DNA from: an uncultured delta proteobacterium | Lineage (GTDB): Bacteria; Desulfobacterota; Binatia; Binatales; Binataceae | DNA length: 64,000 bases | Direction: 5' to 3' | NCBI GenBank assembly: GCA_963724765.1 | Contig: CAVRVY010000004.1 | Location: 928,001-992,000, forward strand | In this document: positions 1 through 21,250 of the stretch, one piece after another | How the letters are laid out: the number at the start of each line of letters is the position of its first letter | Position numbering within the stretch: the stretch's first letter is position 1 | Made by a program: the position numbers and the translations under genes | Notes under the pieces: model-generated | The model's input: only the letters and a program-made list of their open reading frames with translations | Databases searched by the model: none | What the model was told of the DNA's origin: nothing

Positions 1-63
1 CAGGATGCGCCGGCAAGTCTCGGTCATATCGGGTTCGTCGTCGACGATGAGTATTCGCTGCAC
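1..63 (-). CDS. Response regulator receiver domain, N-terminal part (runs off the left edge)
   Basis: Manual translation of the minus strand from GTG at 63 gives MQRILIVDDEPDMTETCRRIL, a typical receiver start (ILIVDDE). In-frame stop at 88-90 upstream. Not in the ORF track. Confidence 0.75.
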   Translation of the reverse strand, partial: MQRILIVDDEPDMTETCRRIL

Positions 64-2326: not shown

Positions 2327-3517
2327 TCAATGCGCGAAGCGGAGCGTGGATGAAGACGCCGCCGGCGATGCCGCGGTGTTCGTGTCATCCGAACGCGCGG
2401 TTACTACCAATTCACCTGGCCTGAGGTCACCGCTCACGACCTCGACATATTGGCCATCGTCGAGTCCGGCTACGATCGACACTGGCCTGATAGCGCTGCC
2501 CTTCGCGACCCAGACCCGCCGCTCGCGCGAACCCGCCGGGTTCGTCGAGTTGTGCATCGCGGAGGTTGGCGAGAACCGCAATGCCTGGATTGGAACGCGA
2601 AGGACATTGTCGCGGCGTGCAGTAGTGATCGTCACGTTTGCGGTCATGCCGGGTTTGAGGAGGAATTCAGGATTGGGCACGTTCACCACGACGTCGTAGG
2701 TTGTAACGTTCTGCACACTGATCGGTACCTGGCGCACCTGCCCAAGAGTGCCCTCGAACACCCGATCCGGGAACGCGTCAACGCCGAAGACGGCGGTTTC
2801 TCCCTCCCGCACGTCGCCGATATCAGACTCGCTCACGTTGGTGTCGACCTGCATTTGCGTCAGGTCCTTCGCGATCAGAAACAGCGTCGGAGTCTCAAAG
2901 CTGGCGGCAACCGTCTGTCCAACATCCACGTTGCGCGAGACCACGGTACCGTCGACCGGCGAAATGATGTTGGTGTAGTCGAGATTGACCTGCGCCTCTT
3001 CGAGGTTGGCTTGCTGCTGTTTGATCATGGCGCGGTCCAGCGCGACTTGGGATACATCCTGTTGAAATGCGCTGCGCGCGTTGTCGAGCGTGTCTTGCGA
3101 GATCACCTTCTCGGCGAGCAGCTTCGTGTCACGCTCGTAGGTGAGGTTCTTGTAGGCGAGATCAGCCTGGTCTTTGCCGAGTTGGGCTTGCGCATTGCCA
3201 AGCGCAGCCGCCGCCTCATGCACTTTGACGGTGAACGGGCGAGGGTCGATTTTCGCGATCAGCTGTCCCGCTCTGACCGGCGAATTGAAATCCGCATAGA
3301 TGGCGATAATCGGCCCGGAGTCATAGGTGCCGACTTGCACGACGATCACGGGATTGACCGTGCCGGTCGCCGTGACCGAGCGGACCACTGAACCGCGGTC
3401 CACCTGCGCCGTGACATATCGAGGCCCGTCCTTGCGCCCGCTCATCCACCACAACGCAACCCCTGCCGTGATTAGCAGCGCGGCGGCAATCGGCCACAGG
3501 CGTTTGATAAGCGGCAC
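2327..3517 (-). CDS. macA: MacA-like periplasmic adaptor (efflux RND MFP subunit)
   Basis: N-terminal TM, lipoyl halves (IISPVDGTVVSRNVDVGQTVAAS), LKPGMTANV. Directly upstream of macB. GTG 3517 preferred because a sigma54 motif overlaps the longer start. Confidence 0.88.
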   Translation of the reverse strand: MPLIKRLWPIAAALLITAGVALWWMSGRKDGPRYVTAQVDRGSVVRSVTATGTVNPVIVVQVGTYDSGPIIAIYADFNSPVRAGQLIAKIDPRPFTVKVHEAAAALGNAQAQLGKDQADLAYKNLTYERDTKLLAEKVISQDTLDNARSAFQQDVSQVALDRAMIKQQQANLEEAQVNLDYTNIISPVDGTVVSRNVDVGQTVAASFETPTLFLIAKDLTQMQVDTNVSESDIGDVREGETAVFGVDAFPDRVFEGTLGQVRQVPISVQNVTTYDVVVNVPNPEFLLKPGMTANVTITTARRDNVLRVPIQALRFSPTSAMHNSTNPAGSRERRVWVAKGSAIRPVSIVAGLDDGQYVEVVSGDLRPGELVVTARSDDTNTAASPAASSSTLRFAH

Positions 3518-3537: not shown

Positions 3538-3552
3538 GCACTGGCTATGCCA
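3538..3552 (-). promoter_or_regulatory. Putative sigma54 promoter for macA-macB
   Basis: Minus strand TGGCATAGCCAGTGC = GG-N10-GC with TGGCA and TGC consensus elements. Confidence 0.65.
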
Positions 3553-3770
3553 CAGAAGATCAGGGGGACCTCGGACTCGGACGCTGACGGGTGTATCCGA
3601 TCGCACCACCGCGTGCCCTTGGTTCCTTTCGAGTCAGTATTCTCACAGCTTTTGGCGATGGGCAGTTGCGGTCCATTGCACCAACGAGCACATGCTGCGC
3701 AAATTGCGCCACCGTCATCGACACGCGGAGCAAACTTTGGTGGGAATAGCGGTGCCGAGACCGGTCGCAA

Positions 3771-3785
3771 CGGCATGGTTCATGC
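3771..3785 (+). promoter_or_regulatory. Putative sigma54 promoter for the DUF2267 gene
   Basis: CGGCATGGTTCATGC = GG-N10-GC, 28 nt before ATG 3814. Confidence 0.6.
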
Positions 3786-3813
3786 GTGTCGCAGATGTAA
3801 GGGAAGTAAGCTC

Positions 3814-4239
3814 ATGGAAGAAGAAAAGTTTGTCCATACAGTCGCCGAGCAATTGACCGTTGACAAGCAGCAAGCGAGGAAGATCGTGGCAGCCGTCTTC
3901 CGCGAGCTGCGCGATCAGCTCACACCAAAGGAAACTGCGGATGCGGCGGCCCAGATGCCGACCGGGCTCAGACGGCTGTGGCTAGCTTCCGAATCCCCCG
4001 GCAGGGAAGTCAGGCGCATTCATAAGTCGGAATTTATCCGGGAGGTATCCGAACGGGCGGAGATTCAGGAGGCTGAGGCGTCGCACGCTGTGAAGGTCGT
4101 CTTCCAGACTTTGCAGGGGCTGTTCCAGAGCCCCACCGGACAAGAGGGGGAAGCCTGGGATATTTTCAGCCAGCTTCCGAAGGACCTTAAGAAACTATGG
4201 ATGGAGGCGGCGCGGCTGCAATCGCAGCGGCCTGTGTAG
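3814..4239 (+). CDS. DUF2267-family protein
   Basis: F..tVAe, A..iv.AVFreLRdqL.pkE..d.AAQmP..l..lW and EFIREV..R...eA...vkvVF.tL......GEa.dIfsQLPkDLk.LW patterns. Start ATG 3814. Confidence 0.82.
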   Translation: MEEEKFVHTVAEQLTVDKQQARKIVAAVFRELRDQLTPKETADAAAQMPTGLRRLWLASESPGREVRRIHKSEFIREVSERAEIQEAEASHAVKVVFQTLQGLFQSPTGQEGEAWDIFSQLPKDLKKLWMEAARLQSQRPV

Positions 4240-4253
4240 CTACGCGTTGCGCC

Positions 4254-4691
4254 TCATTCGGATATTAGTATCCGCGGTTCGAGCCGAACCGGGGCGGAGA
4301 GCGATGCCGAAAGGAAACAAAGCTTGGCGCTTCTCTCCAGCACCTGCAATGCCGCGGCTGAGTCGGATCCGGCGGACAAGCCTAGCACTGGCCTCAGCAC
4401 AACTTCCGTGATTCGTACCACGCCTTCCTGGCGCTGGAGAAGTCCCTCGCCGGTGATATTGATCGACGTGTAGTCGAGCTTGGCCTCTACCGCTACCGCG
4501 CGCAGCGTGAAGAGAAAGCAGCTCTCGACCGACGCCACCAGGAGCTCTTCAGGGCTCCACGCATCGCCGGGGCCATCGAACTCGACCGGTGGCGCCATAC
4601 GTAGCTCGGGCAGGCCGCTGGCGTAGAGGGTCGCATAGCCGCCGGGGCCGTCTTTCAGAGTGACCTCGTAAAGATGCGGGAGCGGTTTCAT
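4254..4691 (-). CDS. OsmC/Ohr-family protein
   Basis: PVEFDGPGDAWSPEELLVASVESC and a second Cys in AKLCFLSASL. GGAGG RBS. Confidence 0.88.
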   Translation of the reverse strand: MKPLPHLYEVTLKDGPGGYATLYASGLPELRMAPPVEFDGPGDAWSPEELLVASVESCFLFTLRAVAVEAKLDYTSINITGEGLLQRQEGVVRITEVVLRPVLGLSAGSDSAAALQVLERSAKLCFLSASLSAPVRLEPRILISE

Positions 4692-4786
4692 AAATACCTC
4701 CGTTCTCGCTCGAACTGACAGACATTCCCGGCCTCGGTCCTAAGCGGCTTAAGCTCCGTTCTGGAGACGCTGGAGGACCGGATGAT

Positions 4787-5245
4787 TCAAGCGTGCGCCA
4801 CCTTTTCGATATGCTCCCGCAGTTTCATCGCCTGGTCCGACGAGCGTTTGCGAGCGTCTTCGCTGGCCTCAAGTTCGGCTTTGACCGCCTCGAGAGACTC
4901 GCCGAGGGTACGGACGCGCGCCCTTAGCTCTTCGCCCTGCTGCGTGGTCTCGCGCTCACGGCGGTCCAGATCCTTGAGCTCGTCTTCGAGGGTCGAAATG
5001 AGAACAGAATCTGCCCGAAGGCGAGCCAGTTCACTTACGTGATCTCGCAGCGCCTTTGCCTCCGCGAAAATCTGTTCGCGTTCGCGGGCGGCTTGCGACT
5101 GTTGCATCATGGCCGTTTCGATCGCCAGTTGCGCTTGCTCCACCTGGTTCCGGAGTTGCGTGATTCTGGTCGCACCATCGATGCCGTTCTCGTTCAGTCT
5201 CCTCATACTTTCCTGCAGGGCTCGGAGCAATGTCTCGTTTCTCAT
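4787..5245 (-). CDS. Hypothetical coiled-coil protein
   Basis: E/R/Q/L-rich heptad pattern throughout. Purine-rich RBS (GGGAGAGAGGG) before ATG 5245. Confidence 0.65.
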   Translation of the reverse strand: MRNETLLRALQESMRRLNENGIDGATRITQLRNQVEQAQLAIETAMMQQSQAAREREQIFAEAKALRDHVSELARLRADSVLISTLEDELKDLDRRERETTQQGEELRARVRTLGESLEAVKAELEASEDARKRSSDQAMKLREHIEKVAHA

Positions 5246-6620
5246 AGTCTTTCCCTCTCTCCCAAGTTGATTCCTCAGCCTTATGCGTGAAGGCTTGATT
5301 CGGTTGAGCGCCTGGCGCAAGAATCCGTTTGACTTCATCGTCGCTGATCTGGTGAAAGTCCCGATAGAATTGTCCTACGGCAAAGAAATTCTCAGGAGTT
5401 TCCAGACAGATGATCTTGTCGGCGTCGTCGCGCAGCGCCTCGAGAGTTTCCGCGGGCGCGACCGGAACCGCCAGTATGACCTGCTTTGGTTTCGCCCGGC
5501 GCACTCCGCGAAGCGCCGCCCGCACCGATGCTCCGGTGGCGATCCCGTCGTCGACGACGATCACGGTCTTGCCTGCCAGTGGCACCGCGGGTTCCGTGCC
5601 GCGGTATTCGAGTTCGCGCCGCTTTGTCTCCTTGAGCTGCCGCTCGATTTCGCGGTTGATGTAGCCGTCCTCGACGCCGAGCGATTCGATCACTTCCTGG
5701 TTGAAGATCGCGTGCGGATGATCGCCATCGACCACCGCGCCGATTCCTAGTTCAGGCTGACCCGGCGCTCCGAGCTTGCGCACGACCACGATATCGAGAG
5801 GCGCCCCGAGGACTTCGGCGACTTCGCGCGCCACGGGCAGACCGCCACGTGGAATGCCAAGCACAACCACCCGCTCGCCCCTGTAAGAGGCCAGCGCGCC
5901 GGCCAGCATCCGCCCGGCCTCTACGCGGTTCGAAAACACGATCGGATTGCCGGTTGAGACGCGGGCTGCCGGCGTGCTTGCCAGATGGCGGACAAACCAT
6001 TCGTTTGCGAGGTTCGCCACCTGCTCCAGCGTTCCCGCTTCCTCAAACAGATGGGTGGCGCGGGGTACGATCTGCAGCGATTTCTCGCAGCGCAGGAGAC
6101 GGTACGCCTTCTCGTTGAGCTCGATTACCCCGTAGTCCCTGCCGCCTACGATAAGCAGAGTGGGCGCCCTGACGTCGGCCAGATGGCGCAGCGCAAGGTC
6201 GGGACGCCCGCCGCGCGAAACCACGGCGCGAATAGTATAGTCCTGGGCGGCGGCCGTCAGCGCGGCCGCGGATCCGGTGCTGGCGCCGAAATATCCCAGT
6301 GCGTAGGCGTTCGTGTCCCGGCCTGCCCTCAGCCACCTCGTCGCGTCGCCAAGCCGATGGGCGAGGAAGTCGATGTCGAAAACGTTCTCGCGGTCGGTCG
6401 CCTCCTCGTCGGTCAGGAGGTCGAACAGCAGTGTGCCGATGCCAGCCTGTTGAAGCGCCTGCGCGACATACTGGTTACGCGGGCTCAGGCGGCTACTGCC
6501 GCTGCCGTGCGCGAATAATACGATCCCGATGGCGCCCTCGGGCATGACCAATTCGCCCTCCAAGCGCACCGAATCGGAAGGTATCAACTCTCGGCTTTGG
6601 CTTATACGTCGCTTCGTCAT
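5031..6620 (-). CDS. Alpha/beta-hydrolase (dienelactone hydrolase-like) - phosphoribosyltransferase fusion
   Basis: FAHGSGSSRLSPRN, GYFGASTG nucleophile elbow, VSRGGRPDL, ATHLFEE; then PRT motifs PRGG, VRKLGAPGQPELGIGA, VVDDGIATGAS, AVGQFYRDF. The C-terminal ~90 aa look like run-on. Confidence 0.9.
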   Translation of the reverse strand: MTKRRISQSRELIPSDSVRLEGELVMPEGAIGIVLFAHGSGSSRLSPRNQYVAQALQQAGIGTLLFDLLTDEEATDRENVFDIDFLAHRLGDATRWLRAGRDTNAYALGYFGASTGSAAALTAAAQDYTIRAVVSRGGRPDLALRHLADVRAPTLLIVGGRDYGVIELNEKAYRLLRCEKSLQIVPRATHLFEEAGTLEQVANLANEWFVRHLASTPAARVSTGNPIVFSNRVEAGRMLAGALASYRGERVVVLGIPRGGLPVAREVAEVLGAPLDIVVVRKLGAPGQPELGIGAVVDGDHPHAIFNQEVIESLGVEDGYINREIERQLKETKRRELEYRGTEPAVPLAGKTVIVVDDGIATGASVRAALRGVRRAKPKQVILAVPVAPAETLEALRDDADKIICLETPENFFAVGQFYRDFHQISDDEVKRILAPGAQPNQAFTHKAEESTWERGKDYEKRDIAPSPAGKYEETERERHRWCDQNHATPEPGGASATGDRNGHDATVASRPRTRTDFRGGKGAARSRK

Positions 6621-6634
6621 ACCCAAGACTGACA

Positions 6635-6649
6635 GCATCAGCTGTGCCA
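6635..6649 (-). promoter_or_regulatory. Putative sigma54 promoter for the hydrolase-PRTase gene
   Basis: Minus strand TGGCACAGCTGATGC = GG-N10-GC. Predicted +1 falls ~3 nt before ATG 6620. Confidence 0.65.
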
Positions 6650-6905
6650 CAGGAGTGACGTCCGACTCGCCGGTTTGGCACCATTTGCTATCGCCCCACT
6701 GGGCAGAAAGGAGACAGGACTGGTCCCGGAGGAGCCATTCTTCTGAACTGCACCGCAGGGATTATCAAGTCAGGGCGCCAGCCTCGGCAAGCGAATCCAT
6801 ACCGGCCGAATTCCCGGCCACGTCTCCGGATTACGCCAGAACTGTATCCGCCACGCCGCGTTTCCGGCATCCGACGATCAGGGCAAGTTTAGAATCAGAT
6901 GCTAG

Positions 6906-6920
6906 TGGCACGGGGACTGC
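6906..6920 (+). promoter_or_regulatory. Putative sigma54 promoter for the hemerythrin-like gene
   Basis: TGGCACGGGGACTGC(A) = TGGCACG-N-TGCA with GG-N10-GC spacing. Confidence 0.7.
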
Positions 6921-6957
6921 ACAAGCTAGTCGCTGGAGCACTTCGAAGGGGCCAATC

Positions 6958-7449
6958 ATGGAGACCAAACAAGTACCGCAAGTAGCGAGCAAAGAGTCGC
7001 AGATGAAGTTCACTCTGGCGAAGCTGGCCGACGAGGATGCCAGGCTGAGGCGGCCGATCCTGGAGGCGGCCTCGGTCGCCGCCCGGCTCTCGCTCGACCC
7101 CGGCAACCTTGAGTTGCGTGAAAGAGCCGCCAAGGCATGGTCGCGGATCGATTCCGTCATCGCGAGACACCTCGACAAGAAGGAACGCACGGTGCTGCCG
7201 TGGGCCGAGTCGCTTGCGGACTTTCCCGGCCAACTGGTCGATCGCGCGCGTAAAAAGCACGAACAGATCACGGCACTGCACGACATCATCGCCACACACT
7301 CCTTTGAAAAGGGGCGCGACGAAGAGGTCGCCGCCGAGGCGCGCAACCTCTGCGTTTACGCGACAACGCTCGACGATCTCATAGCCGGCGAGGAACGCGA
7401 ACTGTTCCCGGTGATGCGCCGGGTGCTCTTTCGTCACCCGCAAACCTGA
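6958..7449 (+). CDS. Hemerythrin-like (HHE) domain protein, degenerate
   Basis: HLDKKERTVLP, KHEQI and IAGEERELFP match the HHE pattern, but some His ligands are missing. Confidence 0.7.
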   Translation: METKQVPQVASKESQMKFTLAKLADEDARLRRPILEAASVAARLSLDPGNLELRERAAKAWSRIDSVIARHLDKKERTVLPWAESLADFPGQLVDRARKKHEQITALHDIIATHSFEKGRDEEVAAEARNLCVYATTLDDLIAGEERELFPVMRRVLFRHPQT

Positions 7450-7624
7450 GCCGGCGGTGCAACGAGGCTCGCGATCGCATGACCTGGAAGACCATCGAGA
7501 AGCCCCGGCGGGCGGGGCCCTTATACCCAACCTGATGGACTATGAGCAGGCCCGCATGAAGTAACCCCGATTTGTCCTGTGCAGCCGTGGGAGAAGATCG
7601 ACAAGCCGCAGTCTCGGCAGATAG

Positions 7625-8812
7625 ATGAGCAGGCAACCCAGGAATCCCCCCATGGCATCAAACGAAACGAAATCCATCGAGCTGTTCAGGGTCGCCGGAG
7701 TACAGATCGAGATCGACTATTCCTGGCTAGTGATTTTTTTCCTCGTGCTGTGGAGTTTATCCGCCGGATATTTTCCGCAAGAATATCCCGGCCAGCGGCC
7801 GCTCGACTACTGGGTCGTCGGCCTCGTGGCGACACTGTTTTTTTTCGCCTCGGTTTTGCTCCATGAGCTTTCCCATGCGGCGATGGCGAACCGGCTCGGG
7901 GAGAACGTCGATCGAATCACGCTTTTCATCTTCGGCGGAATCGCACGTCTCTCGGGCGAGCCGAAAAGCGCCAATAGCGAGATCAAAATAGCGGGCGTCG
8001 GACCACTAACCAGCGTGGCCCTCGCGCTTGCCTTCTGGTTGATTTCGAATGCCATCGGCCCAGCCGCGTCGCTGTGGACTGGGGTCTTTCGCTACCTCGC
8101 CTTCATCAATCTCGCGCTGGCGCTGTTTAATCTTCTGCCGGGGTTTCCGCTCGATGGCGGCCGACTGCTGAGGGCGGTGCTATGGAGGCGATGGGGTGAT
8201 CTGCAACGGGCGACGGCGCGCGCGGCGCAGTGGGGCAGTGGTATCGGCTGGGGGCTGATCGGTCTGGGTTCGATGGAGATTTTCGAGGGTGCGCTGGTCG
8301 GTGGCCTCTGGCTGATTTTCATCGGCCTCTTTTTGCATGGCGCGGCGGCGAGCGGTTACCAGGGCACGGTTATCGAGCAGGCCCTCGAGCACGTCCGCGT
8401 GAGCGACATCATGACTCGCGAGCCGGTGACGCTGTCACCCGAGGTGTCTGTCGGGGAAGCCATCGAACAATACTTTCTGCGCTTCGGTTACGGCGGCTTT
8501 CCCGTGACTTCGGATGGACACGTACTGGGCGTGCTGTCGCTATCGCACGTTCGTCACTGCCAGCCGCAGGAGCGAGCGCATAAGAGAGTGCGGGACATAA
8601 TGCTCCCTCTTAGGCCGGGCCTCGAAATCGCACCTGGGGCGAGCACGCTCGATGCGCTGCACAAGATGAACGAAGCGGACAGCGGCCGTCTGGTCGTCAT
8701 CGATGGCGGCAAGATGGTGGGATTTATCACGCGCACCGGCGTCGCGCGTATCGTGCAGATGAAGGCGCAGCTTGGCGGCAAGGCCAATGTTCCGAAGGAC
8801 AGAGAGACGTGA
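7625..8812 (+). CDS. Site-2 protease (M50) with a CBS pair
   Basis: HELSH zinc motif, FNLLPGFPLDGGR, several TMs, C-terminal tandem CBS. Start may be ATG 7652. Confidence 0.93.
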   Translation: MSRQPRNPPMASNETKSIELFRVAGVQIEIDYSWLVIFFLVLWSLSAGYFPQEYPGQRPLDYWVVGLVATLFFFASVLLHELSHAAMANRLGENVDRITLFIFGGIARLSGEPKSANSEIKIAGVGPLTSVALALAFWLISNAIGPAASLWTGVFRYLAFINLALALFNLLPGFPLDGGRLLRAVLWRRWGDLQRATARAAQWGSGIGWGLIGLGSMEIFEGALVGGLWLIFIGLFLHGAAASGYQGTVIEQALEHVRVSDIMTREPVTLSPEVSVGEAIEQYFLRFGYGGFPVTSDGHVLGVLSLSHVRHCQPQERAHKRVRDIMLPLRPGLEIAPGASTLDALHKMNEADSGRLVVIDGGKMVGFITRTGVARIVQMKAQLGGKANVPKDRET

Positions 8813-8819
8813 GCAGCGT

Positions 8820-8834
8820 TGGCACGACAATAGC
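8820..8834 (+). promoter_or_regulatory. Putative sigma54 promoter for the small protein / PCMT-Ere genes
   Basis: TGGCACGACAATAGC = TGGCACG with GG-N10-GC spacing. Confidence 0.62.
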
Positions 8835-8858
8835 TATCAGACCCAGAGGTCTCAGAAG

Positions 8859-9041
8859 ATGCCCGTAAATGTAGTCAAGACGCCCGCGGAAGAAATCGCG
8901 TGGGAGCGCGCAAAGGCTCGCGCTCGGGAGCAGTATCCGGAGGCTACCGGCGAACGCTTTTATCGGATTGTTATGGCCATCTACAAGAAAATGGTTCATT
9001 ACCAACCCCGATCCGCGCGCTATCGCCAGAGTGCGCGTTAA
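8859..9041 (+). CDS. Small 60-aa helical protein of unknown function
   Basis: MPVNVVKTPAEEIAWERAKARAREQYPEATGERFYRIVMAIYKKM. GAGGT RBS at 8846-8850, just downstream of a sigma54 motif. Confidence 0.72.
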   Translation: MPVNVVKTPAEEIAWERAKARAREQYPEATGERFYRIVMAIYKKMVHYQPRSARYRQSAR

Positions 9042-9105
9042 TCGAGAGGTCGCGGGCGATGCAGAAAAAACAAATGTCCCAGGCACTTATGCGAGGTGGC
9101 GAGTT

Positions 9106-11097
9106 ATGCTTGACCTGACAAGCCAGCGTCTTCTGATGGTTCGCGATCAGATTGCCGCGCGCGGAGTGCGCAATCCGGCAGTGCTCGGGGCGATGCGACG
9201 TGTTCCACGGGAGGCTTTTCTCCCGGAAGAATTAGCTGAGTTCGCATACCAGGACACACCCCTGCCGATCGAGGCCGACCAGACCATCTCGCAGCCGTAT
9301 ATCGTTGCGCTGATGATCGAGAGCGTCGAACCGCGCGCCGGCGATCGCGCTCTCGAGATTGGAACCGGCTCGGGATACGCGGCGGCAGTGCTCTCGGAAG
9401 TGGTGCGCGAGGTCTATACCATCGAGCGGCACGCACAATTGGCCAAGCTGGCAAGCAAGCGCTTAGCTGGCCTGGGATATACGAAAATCAAGGTCCTTCA
9501 CGGCGACGGGACCCTCGGTTGGCCCGCGCATGCTCCGTATGACGTGATCGTGGTGACAGCCGGCGGTCCCCAGGTGCCAAAGCCCCTCCTTGAACAACTG
9601 GCCATCGGGGGCCGTCTCATCATTCCGGTAGGCGATACGTCGCGGCTGCAACGCCTGGTGCGAATTACGCGCACCGCCGAAGATCACTTCGATGACGAGG
9701 ATCTTGGCGATGTTCAGTTCGTTCCATTGATTGGAGCGGAAGGTTGGGATTCCGCGGTCGCCAAACAGGCTCGCCCATCTACCCGGGGCAGCCGTCCAGT
9801 GACGATCGCCAAGCTGATCCGCGAGACGGCTGCGCCTCTCGCTGACATTGAGCAGGCCGAGATCGGCCCTTTGCTGGAGCGGATGGCGGGGGCGCGGGTG
9901 GTTCTGCTAGGCGAGGCGACCCATGGTACGTCGGAGTTCTATCGGATGCGGGCGCGCATCACGAAGGAACTGATCCTGCGGCACGGTTTCAACTTCGTCG
10001 CCGTCGAGGCTGATTGGCCGGATGCCGCCAGAATCAATCAGTATGTGCGTCATGCTCCGCCACGGCAGGAGCAATGGAAGGCTTTCGCCCGCTTCCCGAC
10101 CTGGATGTGGCGAAACCATGAAGCGTTGGCACTGGTTGAGTGGCTGCGCGCGTGGAACGCGGAGGTGCCGGACCCGGAGCGGCGCGTCAGCTTCTATGGA
10201 TTGGATCTCTACAGTCTCTTCACTTCAATCGGGGCCGTTATCGACTATCTGGGCAGCGTTGATCCGGCGATGGCCGCAATCGCGCGCAGCCGGTATGCAT
10301 GCCTGAGTCCTTGGGAACACGATCCTGCGGTGTATGGCCGCGCAGTGCTCAGCGGGCGCTATCGAGACTGCGAAGACGCAGTCGTCGCGATGCTACGCGA
10401 TATGCTCAATCGGCGGATCGAATATTCCCAGCGTGACGGCGATCGCTTCTTCGACGCCGCGCAGAACACTCGCTTGGTCGCCGCAGCGGAGCGGTATTAC
10501 CGCGTGATGTATTACGGCTCTGTCGATTCCTGGAATCTGCGCGATCAGCATATGTTCGACACTCTTGAGCGGTTGTTCGATTTCCACGGCCCTGGCAGCA
10601 AGGGCATAGTCTGGGAGCACAACTCACACGTCGGCGACGCATCGGCCACGGAGATGGGCGCGCGTGGTGAGCACAACGTAGGACAGTTATCTCGCGCGCG
10701 ATTCGCCGAGTCGGCATTTCTGCTTGGCTTCGGTACCGACCACGGTACGGTCGCGGCAGCATCGGACTGGGACGGCCCCATGGAGGTCAAGCGCATACGT
10801 CCATCCCATGAAGCCAGCTATGAGCGGCTATGCCACAACTCTGAGGTCAAAGCGTTCATGTTGCACCTTAGAGACCCGGCCAGACAGACGCTGCGCGACG
10901 AACTGGAGGCAGCCCGCCTGGAACGTGCAATCGGCGTGGTCTATAGGCCCGAATCCGAAATCATGAGTCACTATTTCCAGGCCTGCCTGCCCCGACAGTT
11001 CGACGAGTACATCTGGTTCGACGAAACTCGCGCGGTGTCGCCGCTTCCATCGGTCGCCGCCCCCGGTGTCCCAGAGACGTTTCCATTCGGGGTTTAA
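9106..11097 (+). CDS. pcm: Protein-L-isoaspartate O-methyltransferase fused to an erythromycin esterase-like (Ere) domain
   Basis: QTISQPYIVA, LEIGTGSGY, PYDVIVVTA, FVPLIG; then LGEATHGTSEFY, AVEADWPD, FYGLDLYS, WNLRD, HNSHVGDA, ERAIGVVY, QFDEYIWFD. GAGGT RBS before ATG 9106. Confidence 0.93.
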   Translation: MLDLTSQRLLMVRDQIAARGVRNPAVLGAMRRVPREAFLPEELAEFAYQDTPLPIEADQTISQPYIVALMIESVEPRAGDRALEIGTGSGYAAAVLSEVVREVYTIERHAQLAKLASKRLAGLGYTKIKVLHGDGTLGWPAHAPYDVIVVTAGGPQVPKPLLEQLAIGGRLIIPVGDTSRLQRLVRITRTAEDHFDDEDLGDVQFVPLIGAEGWDSAVAKQARPSTRGSRPVTIAKLIRETAAPLADIEQAEIGPLLERMAGARVVLLGEATHGTSEFYRMRARITKELILRHGFNFVAVEADWPDAARINQYVRHAPPRQEQWKAFARFPTWMWRNHEALALVEWLRAWNAEVPDPERRVSFYGLDLYSLFTSIGAVIDYLGSVDPAMAAIARSRYACLSPWEHDPAVYGRAVLSGRYRDCEDAVVAMLRDMLNRRIEYSQRDGDRFFDAAQNTRLVAAAERYYRVMYYGSVDSWNLRDQHMFDTLERLFDFHGPGSKGIVWEHNSHVGDASATEMGARGEHNVGQLSRARFAESAFLLGFGTDHGTVAAASDWDGPMEVKRIRPSHEASYERLCHNSEVKAFMLHLRDPARQTLRDELEAARLERAIGVVYRPESEIMSHYFQACLPRQFDEYIWFDETRAVSPLPSVAAPGVPETFPFGV

Positions 11098-11121
11098 CTG
11101 CTCAGAGCAATACTCAACGAA

Positions 11122-11223
11122 ATGGACGGGACGATCGCGAAGGTACTGAGGAAGATTGGCTGGATGCGCGAACAGCGCATCTGGCCCATTGGGTTGCGCT
11201 ACCTGTGGACCGACGCATTCGGG
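11122..11223 (+). pseudogene. Truncated 5' fragment of a conserved hypothetical protein (RYLWTDAFG motif)
   Basis: MDGTIAKVLRKIGWMREQRIWPIGLRYLWTDAFG. From recall this motif opens a ~300-400-aa conserved family; here similarity stops after ~34 codons. Confidence 0.5.
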
Positions 11224-11367
11224 GCGAACGTCAGGTCTCTATATGCTGGCAATGCGGGGAAGGCTGTCACTGGGAAATCTGATAGCGGGAGTCTCGGTAA
11301 CCTAATCTTAGGATCAGCAGCGCGTTTTTAGTCAACGGAATCTTGGCGATGCTGATCTACGCCTGGA

Positions 11368-11719
11368 TCATTGACCCATTCTTGGATAAAGGTGAGCGGC
11401 AATGAACACCATGCTCGTGAAAACACCCAGCAGCACGGTGTCATAACGTCAAAGCCGGCAATCCGTGCTTCGCCCGAGGAAGGCGGCAGCAACGTTGTCA
11501 ACATCTTGATGAGAGTGCTCTTGCCGGCGCCGTTTGGTCCGATAAGGCCAAAGACCTCGCCCGGCGAGACCGTAAACGAGACATTCGCTAAGTTGGTCGC
11601 GGTTATTTGGAGACGCCGTGCGCAATTCGGTCAGCGGAATTTCAGCGTCGCCGGATGCCGAGGCGGCTATTGTCACCCGTGACCTGACCCAGCGCCTTGG
11701 CGATCTGCTCGCGGTAAAT
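11368..11719. pseudogene. Rearranged remnant of an ABC-2 (DrrA/DrrB-like) exporter
   Basis: + strand 11618-11719: GGAG RBS, GTG, ...AAIVTRDLTQRLGDLLAVN. - strand 11585-11445: [47 protein letters not shown]. Then, in another frame, [25 protein letters not shown] (permease-like C-terminus, stop 11368-11370). Confidence 0.75.
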
Positions 11720-11812
11720 CCTGAAAGCGCGTCACTCAGGACCTGGGTCGGCAATTGCCGCCCCTTTTGCGCAAGCCGCGTCGCCTAGCGAAGAGAACCT
11801 CGCTTTCTCAGA

Positions 11813-12271
11813 CTAGCTTTTGTCGGCGTGCTCGGTTCGCCCTTCGTTTCGAATCGTGAGAACCGGACAGGTCGCTTTGCGCACCACCGCCTCAGCCACG
11901 CTGCCGAGAAAAAAGTGAGCGAGTCTGCCACGGCCGTGGGTGGCCATCACCAGCAGGTCGGGTTTGAATTGTTCGACGGCCTGCAAGATGCCACCGACGA
12001 CGTCGCCGATGAACACGATCGACTCGTACCCGACCCCGCCGAGCTTCTGTCCTGCGATCTCGCGCAGCTTGACCGTCGCCGCCTTCTCTTGGCCCCTATA
12101 GACGTCAGCGGGCATCGGAAAGTCTCCGAATTGCGCCACCAGCGGGACGGCGTGTACCAAAATGACCGTAGCGCCAAAATGGCGGGCGATTTCAGCCGCC
12201 TTGTCCAGAGCCACCAGTGAATTCTCACTGAAGTCGATCGGACACAGGATTTTGCGGTAGGGAAATGCCAT
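11813..12271 (-). CDS. Universal stress protein (UspA family)
   Basis: KILCPIDFSENS, DLLVMATHGRG, LGSVAEAVVRKATCPVLTI. GGAGG RBS before ATG 12271. Confidence 0.95.
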   Translation of the reverse strand: MAFPYRKILCPIDFSENSLVALDKAAEIARHFGATVILVHAVPLVAQFGDFPMPADVYRGQEKAATVKLREIAGQKLGGVGYESIVFIGDVVGGILQAVEQFKPDLLVMATHGRGRLAHFFLGSVAEAVVRKATCPVLTIRNEGRTEHADKS

Positions 12272-12321
12272 GGCCGTAATCGCCTCCGTTAATATCTTCG
12301 GCACCCTTCCAAGAACATAAC

Positions 12322-12330
12322 ATTGTAACA
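12322..12330 (-). promoter_or_regulatory. Possible extended -10 (TGnTACAAT) promoter for usp
   Basis: Minus strand TGTTACAAT ~50 nt upstream of the start codon. Confidence 0.4.
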
Positions 12331-12542
12331 TCCACGAAGCCTAGCGACCTGGCGAAATCGCGCCGACCCCAGAGCGCATCTCACCGAGAAAGCGACCGCA
12401 AAGTGCGAGACCGAAGTCGTATGCAGAGTATTGCTCGCGGCCGACAGGCGCTTGTAGTCACTGGCGCGCCCGCGCCTCCCGACTGCCTGGATTAAAAAGC
12501 TCGTCTCGACCCGCTCAACAACTCTCCGATTAGAAACTACTG

Positions 12543-12749
12543 AAGGTTCACGCGTACACAAGAACTTACGCTCAAGGTCGCCTGAGCAGTCGCGCCAAGT
12601 ACCTCGTTGATATTGTTCTGGCAAAGCAGCTCCTGACGATGGATGCCGCACGGCTTCGCAGCGCGCTCGCGGGAGTCTTCGAGGGACGGCGCCAGCAGCC
12701 TCTTCCCGATCGGTTCCCTGCCCCGCCGGATGAGTGGGCGGTACCATAA
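12543..12749 (+). pseudogene. AbiEii/AbiGii-type nucleotidyltransferase toxin, C-terminal remnant
   Basis: KVHAYTRTYAQGRLSSRAKYLVDIVLAKQLLTMDAARLRSALAGVFEGRRQQPLPDRFP, then a frameshift to PPDEWAVP*. Matches the EK.HA...STR.KD..D motif. In-frame stop upstream and no start codon. Confidence 0.72.
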
Positions 12750-12854
12750 TTGGTGTTGCGTTTCCGCCACGCGTTTGAGCACGCGGATTTGCCTTCTGGA
12801 ATACATAGATTTGCGCTGAGCATGATTGGTCGCGTAAGCGACTTTTGTCGCAAG

Positions 12855-12869
12855 TGGCATGAAGGTTGC
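12855..12869 (+). promoter_or_regulatory. Putative sigma54 promoter upstream of the ExeA-LysM gene
   Basis: TGGCATGAAGGTTGC = near-consensus TGGCAY-N5-TTGC. Confidence 0.65.
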
Positions 12870-13089
12870 GTCCTACCTCGCGAGCGTGAGCAGCGTCGGG
12901 GGAGAGGGCGCGGGACCTTGGGGTTCTTAGCAGTCGGGAGACCTTAAGCGCTCGGTTTGTGAAAACTCTGCGAGTCCTTTCGCCTTGGCTATAACGGCCT
13001 CGGCACTGGCACCGGAGCCATTGCTGCATCGGCAACAGATATAAGAGTGGTTCCATGAGGGCCGAAGACGCACTGCGAAAGATCGGGTG

Positions 13090-14598
13090 ATGCAATACTA
13101 TCAGTACTTCCGCCTGAAAGGTCCGCCTTTCCAGCCCGCGTCACCTGACAGCGCGGTATATTTCAGCCCAACTCATCTTGAGGGCCTTGCCACGCTCGAA
13201 TCTGGACTGTCGAGCGAGCTGACTGGCTTGACCATGCTGACTGGCGAAGCCGGGACCGGAAAAACCACCCTCATATATTCGCTGCTGCAGCGCGATTTTA
13301 AGCGGGTCCGAATCGCGCATATCGACGATCCCAAGCTCTCGTTCCTGGAAATAATGCAGGTCGTCCTGACGCAGCTGAATCTTTACACCACCGGATCGAC
13401 GAAGCTGGATTATCTCGAGACGCTGGACCGATTGCTGAAGCTTCGCGGCAAGGAAGAACGGATTGCGCTAATCGTCGACGAGTCCCAGCTCCTGAGCGAT
13501 GACGTGTTGGAGGAACTGCGGCTACTGTCGAATCGCGGTGACCGATGCCTTCAGCTTATCCTGGTCGGCCATCCGGAACTCGCTGAGCGGTTGAAGAAGC
13601 CGGAGCTACGTCAACTGAATCAGCGAATTTCCTCCCGCGGGGTACTTCAACCGCTTACCCACGCGCAGGCTATCAAGTACGTCGAGTGCAAGCTGAGCGC
13701 TCAAGGCAGCACCTGCTCGGCGATCTTCGAGCGCGGCGCTTTGAAACGGCTGCTTCGGCGTAGCGATGGAATACCCCGAAAAATCAATATGCTCTGCCAT
13801 AACGCGATGGAAACTGCGTATAACGCGGCGGAAAAAAAGATCAGCTACAAGACCGCGAACAAAATTGCCACCGCGTACCACGACTCGGTTAAAATCAAAA
13901 ATCGGGGATTCGGCTTGCGGCCCCTGCGAGTGCCCGCGCTTGTTGTGGGTACCGCGCTCGCGGCGCTTTTGCTATTGGGCTTGGTCTACCCAAATATCTG
14001 GTCAGGTAGGGTACTCCACCATACCGTCTCATCCGCCGGGGCAACCGAACAGACGGTTCGACCAGTTAAGCCAATTAAAGAAGTTAAGTTAGTCGAGCAA
14101 GTTAAGCCAGCCGAGCAAGCGGGCGTCGACGGACATCCGGACTCTGGCGCAAAGCCCCAAGCCGCCATTCCTCTCGCGCCCCATCCGATCGAATTGCGGG
14201 CATCACTTGCTCCCGCAGCGGAGGCGCCCGCAGCCCCCAAAAGCGAGGTTGCCGGGCCGGGGACGGCGCCCGAAATGCGCACAGTTCCAACCGCTCCTGC
14301 CGCGGCCGCGGTAAGCGACGCGATTCACAAACAGACCGAAGTACCCGCAACTCCGGAGCAGCGAAGTCAAACTACGGTCAGGTTTGGAGATACGCTCGAG
14401 AAAATTGCCGTTCGTTATTCCGGATCGAAGTCTGGAATTAATGAACTCATCGCCGCGAACCCGCAGCTGAACAACATAAATCAGTTGAGTGTCGGACAGA
14501 TCATTAACCTGCCTCCCGGCGTCACTCCAAAAGCCCAGCACGATCAGGCCGCAACCGCAGGGCCAGTCCCGAACGCGGAAGATTCTCCGGAGCGATAA
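13090..14598 (+). CDS. ExeA/GspA-family AAA ATPase with TM and C-terminal LysM domain
   Basis: Walker A GEAGTGKTT, LIVDESQ, LQLILVGHPEL, LRQLNQRI, SDGIPRKINMLC; TM; Pro/Ala linker; LysM VRFGDTLEKIA..ANPQLNNINQLSVGQIINLP. Confidence 0.9.
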   Translation: MQYYQYFRLKGPPFQPASPDSAVYFSPTHLEGLATLESGLSSELTGLTMLTGEAGTGKTTLIYSLLQRDFKRVRIAHIDDPKLSFLEIMQVVLTQLNLYTTGSTKLDYLETLDRLLKLRGKEERIALIVDESQLLSDDVLEELRLLSNRGDRCLQLILVGHPELAERLKKPELRQLNQRISSRGVLQPLTHAQAIKYVECKLSAQGSTCSAIFERGALKRLLRRSDGIPRKINMLCHNAMETAYNAAEKKISYKTANKIATAYHDSVKIKNRGFGLRPLRVPALVVGTALAALLLLGLVYPNIWSGRVLHHTVSSAGATEQTVRPVKPIKEVKLVEQVKPAEQAGVDGHPDSGAKPQAAIPLAPHPIELRASLAPAAEAPAAPKSEVAGPGTAPEMRTVPTAPAAAAVSDAIHKQTEVPATPEQRSQTTVRFGDTLEKIAVRYSGSKSGINELIAANPQLNNINQLSVGQIINLPPGVTPKAQHDQAATAGPVPNAEDSPER

Positions 14599-14804
14599 GC
14601 AACGCCGCACTGCGTGCGGAATGTTCACGTGGTCCAATACCGGTTGGGGCCTGTTGTACTTATAGCCCCGGCGGCGCAGTTGGAACTAGCCAATCGGGGC
14701 ATCTGCCTGCCGACTGCGCTCATTGATGTCCTAACTTCGGGATGCGCGTTGCGCAAATTGCATCAGGCGGCCGACGCTGATAGCGGTTTTACCTTCATTA
14801 CGCC

Positions 14805-15245
14805 CTACGAGCCCGAAGAAATGTAGTTGCGCAGCTCGTTCAGTTCCGACTGGGCTTCCTGGAGACGCTGTTTCACGACGTCGCCGATACTGACAATCCC
14901 CTCGAGCACGCCGTCGCGAATCACTGGCAGGTGACGAATACGCTGCAGCGTCATCACCTCCATGAGTTCGACAATCGCGTCCTCCGGCGAACAGGTCCTG
15001 ACCTCGGCCGTCATCAGACGCTCGACCGGAAGCTCCGATACCATCTCTCCGTACTGGGCCATGCCACGGATCACGTCGCGCTCAGAGATTATTCCGGCCA
15101 GGCGGCCCTCTTCATTGACCACCGGGGCGGCTCCGATTCGATTTACGCTGAGCACCTTGACCAGCGCGGCGACGGTGTCGCGCGGCGCGACGGTGACGAC
15201 CCTATGGCCCTTCAGCTCCAGGACCGCCGAAACCTTCGTTGCCAT
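14805..15245 (-). CDS. CBS-pair protein
   Basis: RIGAAPVV, GIISERDV, MTLQRIRHLPV, GIVSIGDVVK. AGGAG RBS. Confidence 0.93.
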   Translation of the reverse strand: MATKVSAVLELKGHRVVTVAPRDTVAALVKVLSVNRIGAAPVVNEEGRLAGIISERDVIRGMAQYGEMVSELPVERLMTAEVRTCSPEDAIVELMEVMTLQRIRHLPVIRDGVLEGIVSIGDVVKQRLQEAQSELNELRNYISSGS

Positions 15246-17809: not shown

Positions 17810-18256
17810 GAACTGTTCGCCGCGCCGTTGGGAGGTTTCTCGTTCAAGACCAGCCAGTAGAGGCCGAGTTGACGAACCGCTTCGACGAACTGCTCGAAGT
17901 CAACCGGCTTGCGCACGTAACTGTTAGCGCCCAAGTCGTAGCCACGCGCTATATCCTGATCCTCCCTGGAGGAGGTAAGGATTACTACGGGGATAAGCTT
18001 AGTCCGCGGGTCCGCGCGCAGCCTGGTCAGCACCTCGAATCCGTCGAGCTTGGGTAGCTTCAGGTCGAGCAGAACGATTTGCGGCAGGTCGTTGGGATCT
18101 CGTCCCGCATACGATCCCGTCCCGAGGAGGTAATCGATCGCCTGGACACCGTCGCGCGCCACCACGACCCTGTTGGTGATATTGTTCTTCTTCAACGCGC
18201 GCAGGGTCAGCGCTTCGTCGTCAGCGTTGTCTTCCACCAACAGGATGACTTGTTGT

Positions 18257-18264
<8 letters not shown>
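17806..18264 (-). CDS. Single-domain response regulator (Rcp1-like)
   Basis: ILLVEDNADD, LLDLKLPKLDG, LTSS, GANSYVRKPVDF. AAGGAG RBS before ATG 18264; overlaps both neighbours. Confidence 0.93.

Positions 18265-21250
<2,986 letters not shown>

Follow-up and report, generated by a model that had tools for sequence, protein, structure and literature searches.

Do the eight protein families encoded side by side at 3.8–15.2 kb of a Binataceae genome segment form a functional system, and, if so, which regulator switches it on? The segment, called the window below, is the whole 64,000-nt stretch of DNA that was analyzed (G000:C4:928001-992000, G000 being a 5.4-Mb assembly of four contigs), and the locus within it, island 1, encodes among others a fusion of protein-L-isoaspartate O-methyltransferase (PCMT) with an erythromycin-esterase-family domain (Ere), close homologs of which (87–90% identity) are labeled Candidatus Binataceae by their sources. 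A sequence-only reading had likened the locus to the DosR regulon of Mycobacterium tuberculosis and had taken it for an undescribed low-oxygen or dormancy module wired to sigma-54 instead of DosR. We consider it reasonably probable that island 1 is one of at least three related clusters of stress-survival or dormancy type in this genome, with four units read by sigma-54 RNA polymerase, a view drawn from what was observed: the genes present, the promoter motifs and how well these are kept, the synteny of an activator gene, neighborhoods across phyla, and domain fusions.

All eight families named earlier were recovered at 3.8–15.2 kb by Pfam search, the hydrolase half of one protein through a match to a solved structure, together with two genes that had been overlooked, one for a coiled-coil protein and one for a 60-residue product (sORF60):

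3814-4239, plus strand: DUF2267 protein, 141 aa (Pfam 8.9e-22; start codon and ribosome-binding site called)
4254-4691, minus strand: OsmC-family protein of peroxiredoxin type, last in the hydPRT unit (Pfam 5.3e-15)
4787-5245, minus strand: coiled-coil protein, 152 aa, no family (gene call)
5031-6620, minus strand: hydrolase-phosphoribosyltransferase (hydPRT), a dienelactone-hydrolase-like domain (DLH) plus a type I phosphoribosyltransferase-like domain (PRTase or PRT; Pribosyltran 2.5e-22)
6958-7449, plus strand: hemerythrin-like protein (Hr), 163 aa (Pfam 3.9e-6)
7625 or 7652 to 8812, plus strand: M50 site-2-type metalloprotease with a C-terminal CBS pair, M50-CBS (Pfam M50 2.5e-20, CBS 3.1e-19)
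8859-9041, plus strand: sORF60, 60 aa, no Pfam family (gene call)
9106-11097, plus strand: PCMT-Ere fusion, 663 aa (PCMT 9.3e-61, Erythro_esteras 2.4e-132)
11813-12271, minus strand: universal stress protein (USP), 152 aa (Pfam 3.6e-35)
14805-15245, minus strand: CBS-pair protein, 146 aa (Pfam 7.6e-23)

The DUF2267 gene starts at 3814, the start previously placed at 3538 or 3547 belonging to an over-long open reading frame. The clustering of the set families in the island is more than chance: nine to ten set genes were seen in 11.4 kb against about 0.17 predicted from 80 set genes among 5286 called genes in 5.4 Mb, as assigned with our own family models and with a family set partly defined after the islands had been inspected.

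G000 encodes sigma-54 (rpoN; Sigma54_DBD 4.3e-60, G000:C3:568723-569199), and the motif TGGCAC-N5-TTGCW was searched with mismatches counted, sites with at most one mismatch being termed near-consensus. The following −24/−12-type sites face gene starts in the island:

3771-3786, plus strand: weak −24/−12-like site CGGCATGGTTCATGCG, 27 nt 5′ of the DUF2267 start, GG and GC kept
6634-6649, minus strand: hydPRT site TGGCACAGCTGATGCT, at most one mismatch, 13 nt before the ATG at 6620
6906-6921, plus strand: Hr site TGGCACGGGGACTGCA, at most one mismatch, 37 nt before the Hr start
8820-8835, plus strand: sORF60 site TGGCACGACAATAGCT, at most one mismatch, 24 nt before sORF60

Counted over the window, sites with at most two mismatches stand at chance level (24 found versus 26.4 expected), as they would if the motifs were noise and the genes chance neighbors, or products of duplication and decay of an accessory region, with no shared regulation or function. 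The gene order that varies in close relatives, the remnants and frameshifts, and the patchy distribution of full-length PCMT-Ere, present in 9 of 41 genomes (G000 and 40 relatives) and split in one of them, fit that explanation as well. It is nevertheless already disfavored and, in our judgment, highly improbable, given that the motifs are kept at fixed distances while their flanks diverge, that the motif is enriched among set genes, that across phyla the set families grow sparser farther from the query gene, and that domain fusions link the enzymes. The signal resides in the one-mismatch sites, their placement and their conservation, not in window-wide counts. The window holds four such sites, three of them inside a 2.2-kb part of the island, and these three form a strong cluster because only 127 such sites exist in the 5.4 Mb of the genome (0.023 per kb); all three are intergenic, each facing a gene start (hydPRT, Hr, and sORF60).

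Conservation singles out the same positions. Upstream of sORF60, TGGCAYGRCNNTMGCT is kept 24–26 nt from the ATG in all six copies compared (the window, island 2 of the same genome, and four relatives) while the flanks diverge, and it likewise precedes sORF60 in L031, a Binatia-like contig from a public metagenome-assembled genome whose hydPRT is 75% identical. The Hr site is retained before the paralogs Hr2 and Hr3 and, as TGGCATGGGGAATGCA, in the ortholog of genome G001; three 79–83% copies of Hr exist across G000 and G001. The paralog hydPRT2 retains TGGCACGTCTGATGCT, a 10-nt insertion there increasing the distance to the start to 24 nt. Equivalents of the DUF2267 site stand at the same position in island 2 (TGGCATGTTCCATGCT) and in locus L015 (TGGCACGGGTGATGCT), three of the five homologs examined carrying one. 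No promoter motif was found in the 7450–7624 gap between Hr and M50-CBS, which are probably co-transcribed. The units predicted to be under sigma-54 would thus be DUF2267; hydPRT with the coiled-coil gene and OsmC; Hr with M50-CBS; and sORF60 with PCMT-Ere. Sigma-54 control of these four units, spanning 3.77–11.1 kb, is well supported by the motifs and very probably genuine.

The enrichment extends over the genome. Among the 5286 genes found by our own gene caller, near-consensus sites precede 10 of the 80 set genes versus 45 of the 5206 others (odds ratio 16, Fisher p 6e-9, with reservations weighed below), in a test that omits the island's own hydPRT gene, hydPRT1, as its called open reading frame ran over its promoter; in all, 55 of the 127 sites lie between genes and face a gene start at most 200 nt away. 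Such sites precede the three close Hr copies, both hydPRT genes, two Hsp20 genes, two USP-CBS fusions, and a DksA-like gene, and sORF60-2, DUF2267-2, and a nitroreductase gene have two-mismatch sites in front of them. At least 14 predicted promoters in several clusters share the sigma-54 type.

The clusters themselves recur, G000 holding at least three. Island 2 (C4:635-692 kb) comprises USPs, four CBS genes, a four-BON protein, GroEL, and two Hsp20; sORF60-2 with a 48-aa PCMT-Ere remnant (C4:649747-649890), followed by RtcB; an activator, a frameshifted OsmC, PolX, the coiled-coil gene, hydPRT2 (83%), and Hr2 (83%); and DUF2267-2, a protein joining a hibernation factor to a cold-shock domain, a DksA-like gene, and P-type ATPase fragments. 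Island 3 (C4:1650-1703 kb) encodes USP, OsmC, M50-CBS (61%), nitroreductase, CBS, a hibernation factor, and a USP-CBS fusion. From their content, islands 1 and 2 seem to have decayed reciprocally from one layout: PCMT-Ere is intact in island 1, which has lost the RtcB and ABC genes apart from an ABC remnant, whereas island 2 shows the reverse, with an intact ABC gene after RtcB. OsmC paralogs occur in islands 2 and 3, and the coiled-coil gene, whose product yields only a sub-threshold DUF3958 match in Pfam, always lies between hydPRT and OsmC, its 63% paralog adjoining hydPRT2. In the relatives, six of the eight PCMT-Ere loci contain at least one other set family and five contain at least two (profile models), and an Hsp20–DksA-like gene pair stands beside sORF60–PCMT-Ere in four loci. 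Always directly behind a putative sigma-54 promoter, sORF60 is found in the window, at G000:C4:649516-649698, in L015–L018, and at L031:19693, preceding PCMT-Ere in five loci, the PCMT-Ere remnant and then RtcB in island 2, and FtsH in L031, for which reason no binding of sORF60 to PCMT-Ere is claimed; the Atlas clusters closest to it (63 aa; 81 and 66 members) occur most often in Binatota.

Promoters of the −24/−12 type would need an ATP-driven activator, for which the left edge of the window offers a candidate, and a conserved block upstream of hydPRT offers a candidate binding region:

window 1-63, minus strand (whole gene G000:C4:926684-928063): 5′ end of the gene for an NtrC-type enhancer-binding protein, 459 aa (gene call)
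6706-6740, no strand assigned: conserved block GAAAGGAGACAGGACTGGTCCCGGAGGAG, about 35 nt, some 60–110 nt upstream of the hydPRT promoter

The enhancer-binding protein combines REC, sigma-54 AAA+, and HTH_8 domains (Sigma54_activat 1.3e-72, Response_reg 3.3e-32; Pfam). Nine orthologs at 65% identity or more occur outside G000 among the 41 genomes; in seven of these loci, genes of the set lie no more than 10 kb away (Hr or M50-CBS being the immediate neighbor in two), and in G016 DUF2267, DLH-PRT, Hsp20, and CBS genes lie downstream. In L031, a 75% ortholog has an Hr-like gene on one side and hydPRT on the other and comes immediately after a PAS-HisKA-HATPase kinase. We infer that this protein is the best candidate for driving the island. 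The alternative is that it serves the neighboring HlyD-MacB pump or an acyl-ligase gene, leaving the island to another activator, such as the sensor-less homolog encoded next to OsmC in island 2: the activator gene follows HlyD-MacB in the same orientation, the acyl-ligase/acyltransferase gene on its left has a sigma-54-like site in front of it, and island 2 and L031 each have a second activator of another type. We regard such an assignment as unlikely, since the orthologs are syntenic with Hr, M50-CBS, USP, Hsp20, and DLH-PRT in seven of the nine relatives and in L031, while HlyD-MacB homologs of at least 90% identity accompany only one of the nine ortholog loci, one more having a 28% HlyD match.

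The 6706–6740 block recurs before both hydPRT1 and hydPRT2 and, in the opposite orientation, before Hr3, and it may be the region to which the activator binds; it contains no clean palindrome. The words CTGTATCC and GGAGACAG, enriched upstream of the promoters, were considered as the activator site and set aside, as they come mostly from paralogous intergenic regions; only the term conserved block was retained. On the right of the island lie kinases that could conceivably act as sensors feeding the activator; their PAS units are 41–43% identical to the PAS kinase beside the L031 activator ortholog:

15443-21250, minus strand: PAS hybrid kinase with three receiver domains, a receiver protein, and a kinase with CHASE3 and four PAS domains (Pfam)

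The hydrolase half of hydPRT stays under the Pfam cut-off, yet the dienelactone hydrolase of solved structure 2o2g is matched at 3.9e-66, and the PRTase half resembles Thermus TT1426 (1wd5, 4e-42); in an alignment of 17 homologs of the same domain order, Ser114, Asp141, and the DD..T loop (DDG.ATG) are invariant, and His190 is nearly so. Homology of hydPRT stops near 5290, and the frame stays open for about 86 further codons (5031-5290), overlapping the coiled-coil gene in another frame; this tail looks non-coding. In L031 a gene for phosphoribosyl pyrophosphate (PRPP) synthetase (13342-14316) lies between hydPRT and RtcB, which hints that the PRTase domain truly uses PRPP. Hr is the weakest of the family assignments (27.8 bits versus a cut-off of 25.3; Pfam). 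M50-CBS has the motifs HELSH and LPGFPLDG. Both domains of PCMT-Ere occur in all 120 homologs listed. Its PCMT half, a putative methyltransferase, matches 1jg1 at 2e-49 and has the S-adenosylmethionine-binding motif LEIGTGSGY; its Ere domain is full-length (positions 3–358 of 358; Pfam) and has as nearest solved structures the Bacillus “succinoglycan biosynthesis” proteins 2qgm (2.9e-24) and 2rad, EreC being matched at only 2.2e-6. The fusions of Ere to PCMT and to PRT-DLH argue for a cellular substrate, and we do not term it a resistance gene.

Put together, these features suggest a mechanism in which a PAS-type histidine kinase would phosphorylate the NtrC-type response regulator encoded from window 1-63 on meeting the trigger, and the products of the four units would maintain the non-growing cell. 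PCMT would repair isoaspartyl damage, coupled to the Ere-type hydrolase; the PRTase and DLH hydrolase would perform a PRPP-linked reaction, tied functionally to Ere through gene fusions; OsmC would remove peroxide; M50-CBS would provide nucleotide-gated membrane proteolysis; and the USP and the CBS pair would be small nucleotide-binding regulators, transcribed here from other promoters. The acting regulator, the signal (low oxygen or energy limitation being most likely), the operon structure, and all of the enzymology are put forward in this scheme as proposals. The gene set as such would be old and widespread, with only the regulator exchanged (DosR in actinobacteria, a FixK/FNR-type protein in alphaproteobacteria, and sigma-54 here), because the same families stand under DosR and FixK/FNR-type regulators elsewhere.

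Gene-neighborhood scans across phyla bear on that proposal. The hydPRT family comprises 5031 cluster representatives at E ≤ 1e-30, the PRT-DLH order being the commoner, and 80 loci from Proteobacteria, Actinomycetota, Planctomycetota, Verrucomicrobiota, Gemmatimonadota, Cyanobacteria, the Candidate Phyla Radiation, and Archaea were scanned with our own models, with the following occurrences:

CBS: 16 of the 80 loci
Hsp20: 10 of the 80 loci
USP: 10 of the 80 loci
RtcB: 8 of the 80 loci
Ere: 8 of the 80 loci
P-type ATPase: 5 of the 80 loci
DUF2267: 4 of the 80 loci
M50: 4 of the 80 loci

Matches to set families fall from 1.49 per 10 kb at 0–2 kb from the hydrolase/PRTase gene to 0.73, 0.48, 0.59, and, at 8–10 kb, 0.24, a decay with distance that serves as an internal control; the genome-wide density in G000 is about 0.15 per 10 kb. 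The families thus co-occur beyond chance in G000, in its relatives, and across phyla, in line with the earlier claim of a conserved module. The association crosses the domain boundary, as in the archaeon Nitrosotalea sp. (L104) the DLH-PRT gene lies amid about nine CBS matches, three USPs, and one Hsp20 within 20 kb. A Pfam scan of eight representatives chosen for unusual length revealed three triple fusions of the PRT-DLH-Ere type plus one more in which the Ere domain is cut. More speculatively, and with considerable doubt, PRTase, DLH, the Ere-type hydrolase, and PCMT might constitute one ancient pathway of Bacteria and Archaea whose enzymes, in cells that do not grow, share a single substrate, for instance a protein carboxyl group that is damaged or modified, or an intermediate that has been phosphoribosylated. 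Its Rosetta stones would then be the fusions DLH-PRT, PRT-DLH, PRT-Ere, PCMT-Ere, and PRT-DLH-Ere, and each lineage would have connected it to a “stop growing” regulator of its own, Binatia to sigma-54/NtrC, actinobacteria to DosR, and alphaproteobacteria to FixK/FNR. If true, this would give a single biochemical meaning to several uncharacterized DosR-regulon proteins.

Which signal the set answers to can be approached through the regulatory sites found elsewhere. Among the cross-phylum loci, sigma-54-like sites cluster only in the Binatia-like L031 (six sites) and L062 (five sites). The Dev-box core of actinobacteria, GGGAC-N4-GTCCC, has a look-alike 58 nt before PRT-DLH in an Acidimicrobiaceae locus and others near two further actinobacterial loci; it has no match in the window at up to one mismatch, and no FNR box was found in the island. 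Full-length PCMT-Ere at 56–62% identity was found in 12 of 81 genomes of the alphaproteobacterial family of G041, which was reached through a Xanthobacter locus. Seven of these 12 genes have a perfect TTGAY-N4-RTCAA (FixK/FNR-type) box 57–143 nt upstream, and the 202 kb of the 12 loci contain 21 such boxes versus 12 in all of G000. In Bradyrhizobium diazoefficiens, bll4651, annotated as PCMT, is listed as a FixK2 target (PMC6515984, Table 2); at 0.5% O2 its protein is given as up by log2 4.6 and its transcript as 28.7-fold up, and neighboring USP, CBS, nitroreductase, and PfkB-type genes are reported there as microoxia-induced. A low-oxygen link of the PCMT-Ere family is supported by this orthology, bll4651 being included by its PCMT annotation. 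For the Binataceae island itself, a low-oxygen trigger can be suggested by analogy with these orthologs; we tentatively name hypoxia as the best single guess for the signal, with somewhat less than even confidence, and general growth-arrest stress close behind. Of the module proposed at the outset, on sigma-54 rather than DosR, the sigma-54 part holds for the four units and agrees with the missing Dev-box core, whereas the low-oxygen part comes from orthologs only.

The close second deserves a full hearing, namely that the island belongs to a sigma-54 regulon of general proteostasis and stress (heat, desiccation, starvation, oxidative, or envelope) and is not tied to oxygen or dormancy in particular. 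Genes for Hsp20, GroEL, RtcB, a DksA-like protein, a hibernation factor, and PolX occur in the sister clusters, L031 adds FtsH, and island 1 holds no oxidase, nitrate-reductase, or anaerobic ribonucleotide-reductase gene. In E. coli and other enterobacteria, moreover, sigma-54 drives psp (with PspF), rtcBA (with RtcR), and ibpB, stress operons that share with the Binataceae clusters the placing of repair genes behind −24/−12 promoters and the use of dedicated AAA+ activators, RtcB and Hsp20 being among the Binataceae sigma-54 targets too; those are single operons, in contrast to at least 14 promoters in several clusters and a phosphorylation-dependent NtrC-type candidate here. Against a purely general role stand the FixK/FNR-type boxes before alphaproteobacterial PCMT-Ere orthologs, the microoxic induction of bll4651 (PMC6515984, as tabulated there), and the hypoxic induction of the same families in the DosR and lxa sets (PMC5309233, PMC3721108). 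We hold the general-stress explanation to be possible though somewhat unlikely; it overlaps with the dormancy reading, because dormancy regulons are stress regulons.

Several observations weigh against the favored reading of a sigma-54-controlled survival island, beyond the possibility that its activator serves the pump or the acyl-ligase gene instead. The activator gene is split from the island by the HlyD-MacB operon, no kinase gene adjoins it in G000, and palindrome and k-mer searches upstream of 15 promoters found no shared activator dyad in four or more sequences. With 31 Sigma54_activat matches in the genome, sigma-54 use is not particular to set genes, and the odds ratio of 16 stems from models trained on G000 paralogs, from paralogs that are not independent in the Fisher test, and from a set chosen partly post hoc. 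The DUF2267 site has four mismatches to the consensus. The hydPRT1 mRNA would be nearly leaderless if its site were used, since the site ends 13 nt before the homology-supported ATG. For the island USP and CBS pair, no −24/−12 site was found upstream, so that the sigma-54 wiring proposed earlier stands for the four units and is not supported for these two genes. Gene order around PCMT-Ere differs among close relatives, amounting to loose synteny, and 38 of the 80 cross-phylum loci, many on short contigs, lack any set family beside the query gene. Inside the island, no oxygen-specific feature was found. Finally, transcription starts at the −24/−12 sites are predictions from sequence; the RNA evidence consists of one metatranscriptome contig of 269 nt, identical over 7297-7565, which may derive from DNA, and in the same peat metatranscriptome, the only run with any fragment, 5% of sampled words were present, the remaining pieces coming from relatives at 85–90% identity and the parts without coverage being uninformative.

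How much of this is already familiar? According to PMC5309233, DosR members include Rv2625c (the Rip3 metalloprotease), Rv2626c, the putative PRTase Rv0571c, the RtcB protein Rv2631, and the uncharacterized Rv2030c, which PMC4410610 describes as a PRT plus erythromycin-esterase superfamily protein. Measured against these members, the Binataceae island shares USPs, a CBS pair (Rv2626c), M50 (Rv2625c), PRTase (Rv0571c), and Ere in fusion (PRT-Ere in Rv2030c), and the sister clusters of G000 add Hsp20, nitroreductase, RtcB (Rv2631), and a P-type ATPase. The overlap is broad, as had been claimed, and it holds at the family level only: the best solved relative of the CBS pair is the Agrobacterium protein 3fhm (1.5e-24), Rv2626c being matched at only 1.2e-8. 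The systems differ in that a NarL-type response regulator and Dev boxes operate there and sigma-54 with an enhancer-binding protein here, in that Ere is fused to PRT there and to PCMT here, where the domain order is DLH-PRT, and in that the regulon is hypoxia-induced there, while hypoxic induction of the island is a suggestion from orthology. The sequence-only reading also credits Rv0571c with a hydrolase half. To our knowledge, Rv0571c, Rv2030c, Rv2625c, and Rv2626c have gone about twenty years without a biochemical function. Their families are now seen to travel together in distant phyla and archaea, with the enzymes fused in some lineages and the same genes placed behind three unrelated oxygen or stress regulators. 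Taken jointly, these three points turn a species-specific list into a portable module, one open to study in vitro or in harmless organisms.

Outside actinobacteria, the lxa locus of Burkholderia cenocepacia is likewise described as an extensive USP-rich island of co-located genes, among them those for Hsp20, a “phospholipid-binding” protein of BON type, nitroreductase, and a P-type ATPase, and its authors (Sass et al. 2013) themselves remark on the overlap with the DosR regulon in the main text (PMC3721108); contiguity and USP richness are equally seen in the Binataceae clusters. Unlike these clusters, the lxa locus is presented in that main text with no naming of PCMT-Ere, DLH-PRT, or M50-CBS, and the terms “CBS,” “erythromycin,” and “sigma-54” are not found there. 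In the FixLJ-FixK2 genes bll4644-blr4659 of B. diazoefficiens, USP, CBS, PCMT (bll4651), nitroreductase, and PfkB-type kinase genes are co-induced at 0.5% O2, as tabulated in PMC6515984, under a CRP/FNR-type activator at sigma-70-type promoters, in contrast to the sigma-54 promoters of the island. DosR-like sets outside actinobacteria are therefore already known, and to call the island an undescribed system went too far: that low-oxygen loci of proteobacteria overlap the DosR regulon is in print (PMC3721108), as is the microoxia-induced USP/CBS/PCMT/nitroreductase cluster of B. diazoefficiens (PMC6515984). In the main texts of the literature searched for Binatia or Binatota with dormancy, USP, or sigma-54, for DosR homologs with erythromycin esterase, and for sigma-54 with Hsp20, USP, or enhancer-binding protein, the present arrangement is not described. 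Within that literature, the sigma-54/NtrC wiring, the multi-copy organization in Binatia, the lineage-specific sORF60, and the fusions tying PRTase, DLH, and Ere together are new. The analysis also yields, for the uncultured class Binatia, a first regulon predicted in concrete terms, with about fourteen sigma-54 promoters, a named activator, and a 60-aa leader gene.

Two further genes in the island had been overlooked by the sequence-only reading:

11415-11591, minus strand: ABC-ATPase remnant, 59 aa (blastx, 71% to the island-2 gene C4:652854-653693)
13090-14598, plus strand: ExeA-like AAA_22 and LysM protein (Pfam)

The ExeA-like gene, probably outside the family set, has four paralogs elsewhere in the genome, one with a sigma-54-like site (TGGCATGGTGTTTGCT, 32 nt upstream, at C4:1474289), and a two-mismatch sigma-54-like site, TGGCATGAAGGTTGCG, lies at 12855-12870, 220 nt before the island gene. 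Upstream of the USP (12272-12340, minus strand), a direct-repeat-like block, ATGTTAC(A/G)ATGTTATG, about 35–55 nt before the start, is common to the USP gene and its 80% G011 ortholog and may be a binding site or another kind of promoter. No Pfam family was found in open reading frames of the gaps at 11.1–11.8 kb and 12.3–13.1 kb, the ABC remnant being detectable by blastx alone, and about 750 nt at 12340-13086 hold no convincing gene or Rfam match; Rfam gave no match over the island as a whole. A sigma-70 and terminator scan of 3.4–15.5 kb returned one promoter-like site versus 3.8 expected, a count that carries no information.

On the left, the island is flanked by the HlyD-MacB pump operon and then by the start of the enhancer-binding-protein gene. 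An 89-nt “tRNA-Val” reported by ARAGORN inside the HlyD gene (3320-3408, minus strand) is not confirmed by Rfam and is probably a false positive, and a mobile island was rejected, the GC content of 0.56–0.62 showing no composition break and the borders no confirmed tRNA. Elsewhere in the genome, another sigma-54 node (G000:C1:339543-346445) groups an activator and a PAS kinase, 47% identical to the kinase of L031, with Hsp20, a CBS protein, and a receiver protein whose gene follows TGGCATGCAGCTTGCT. Left of the window, an 821-aa acyl-ligase/carrier/acyltransferase fusion (Aas-like; G000:C4:923490-925955, minus strand) stands behind TGGCACGGCACATGCG, and the island may extend beyond the window on this side, because USP, isoamylase-like, DUF2950, and DUF992 genes lie further left of the Aas-like gene.

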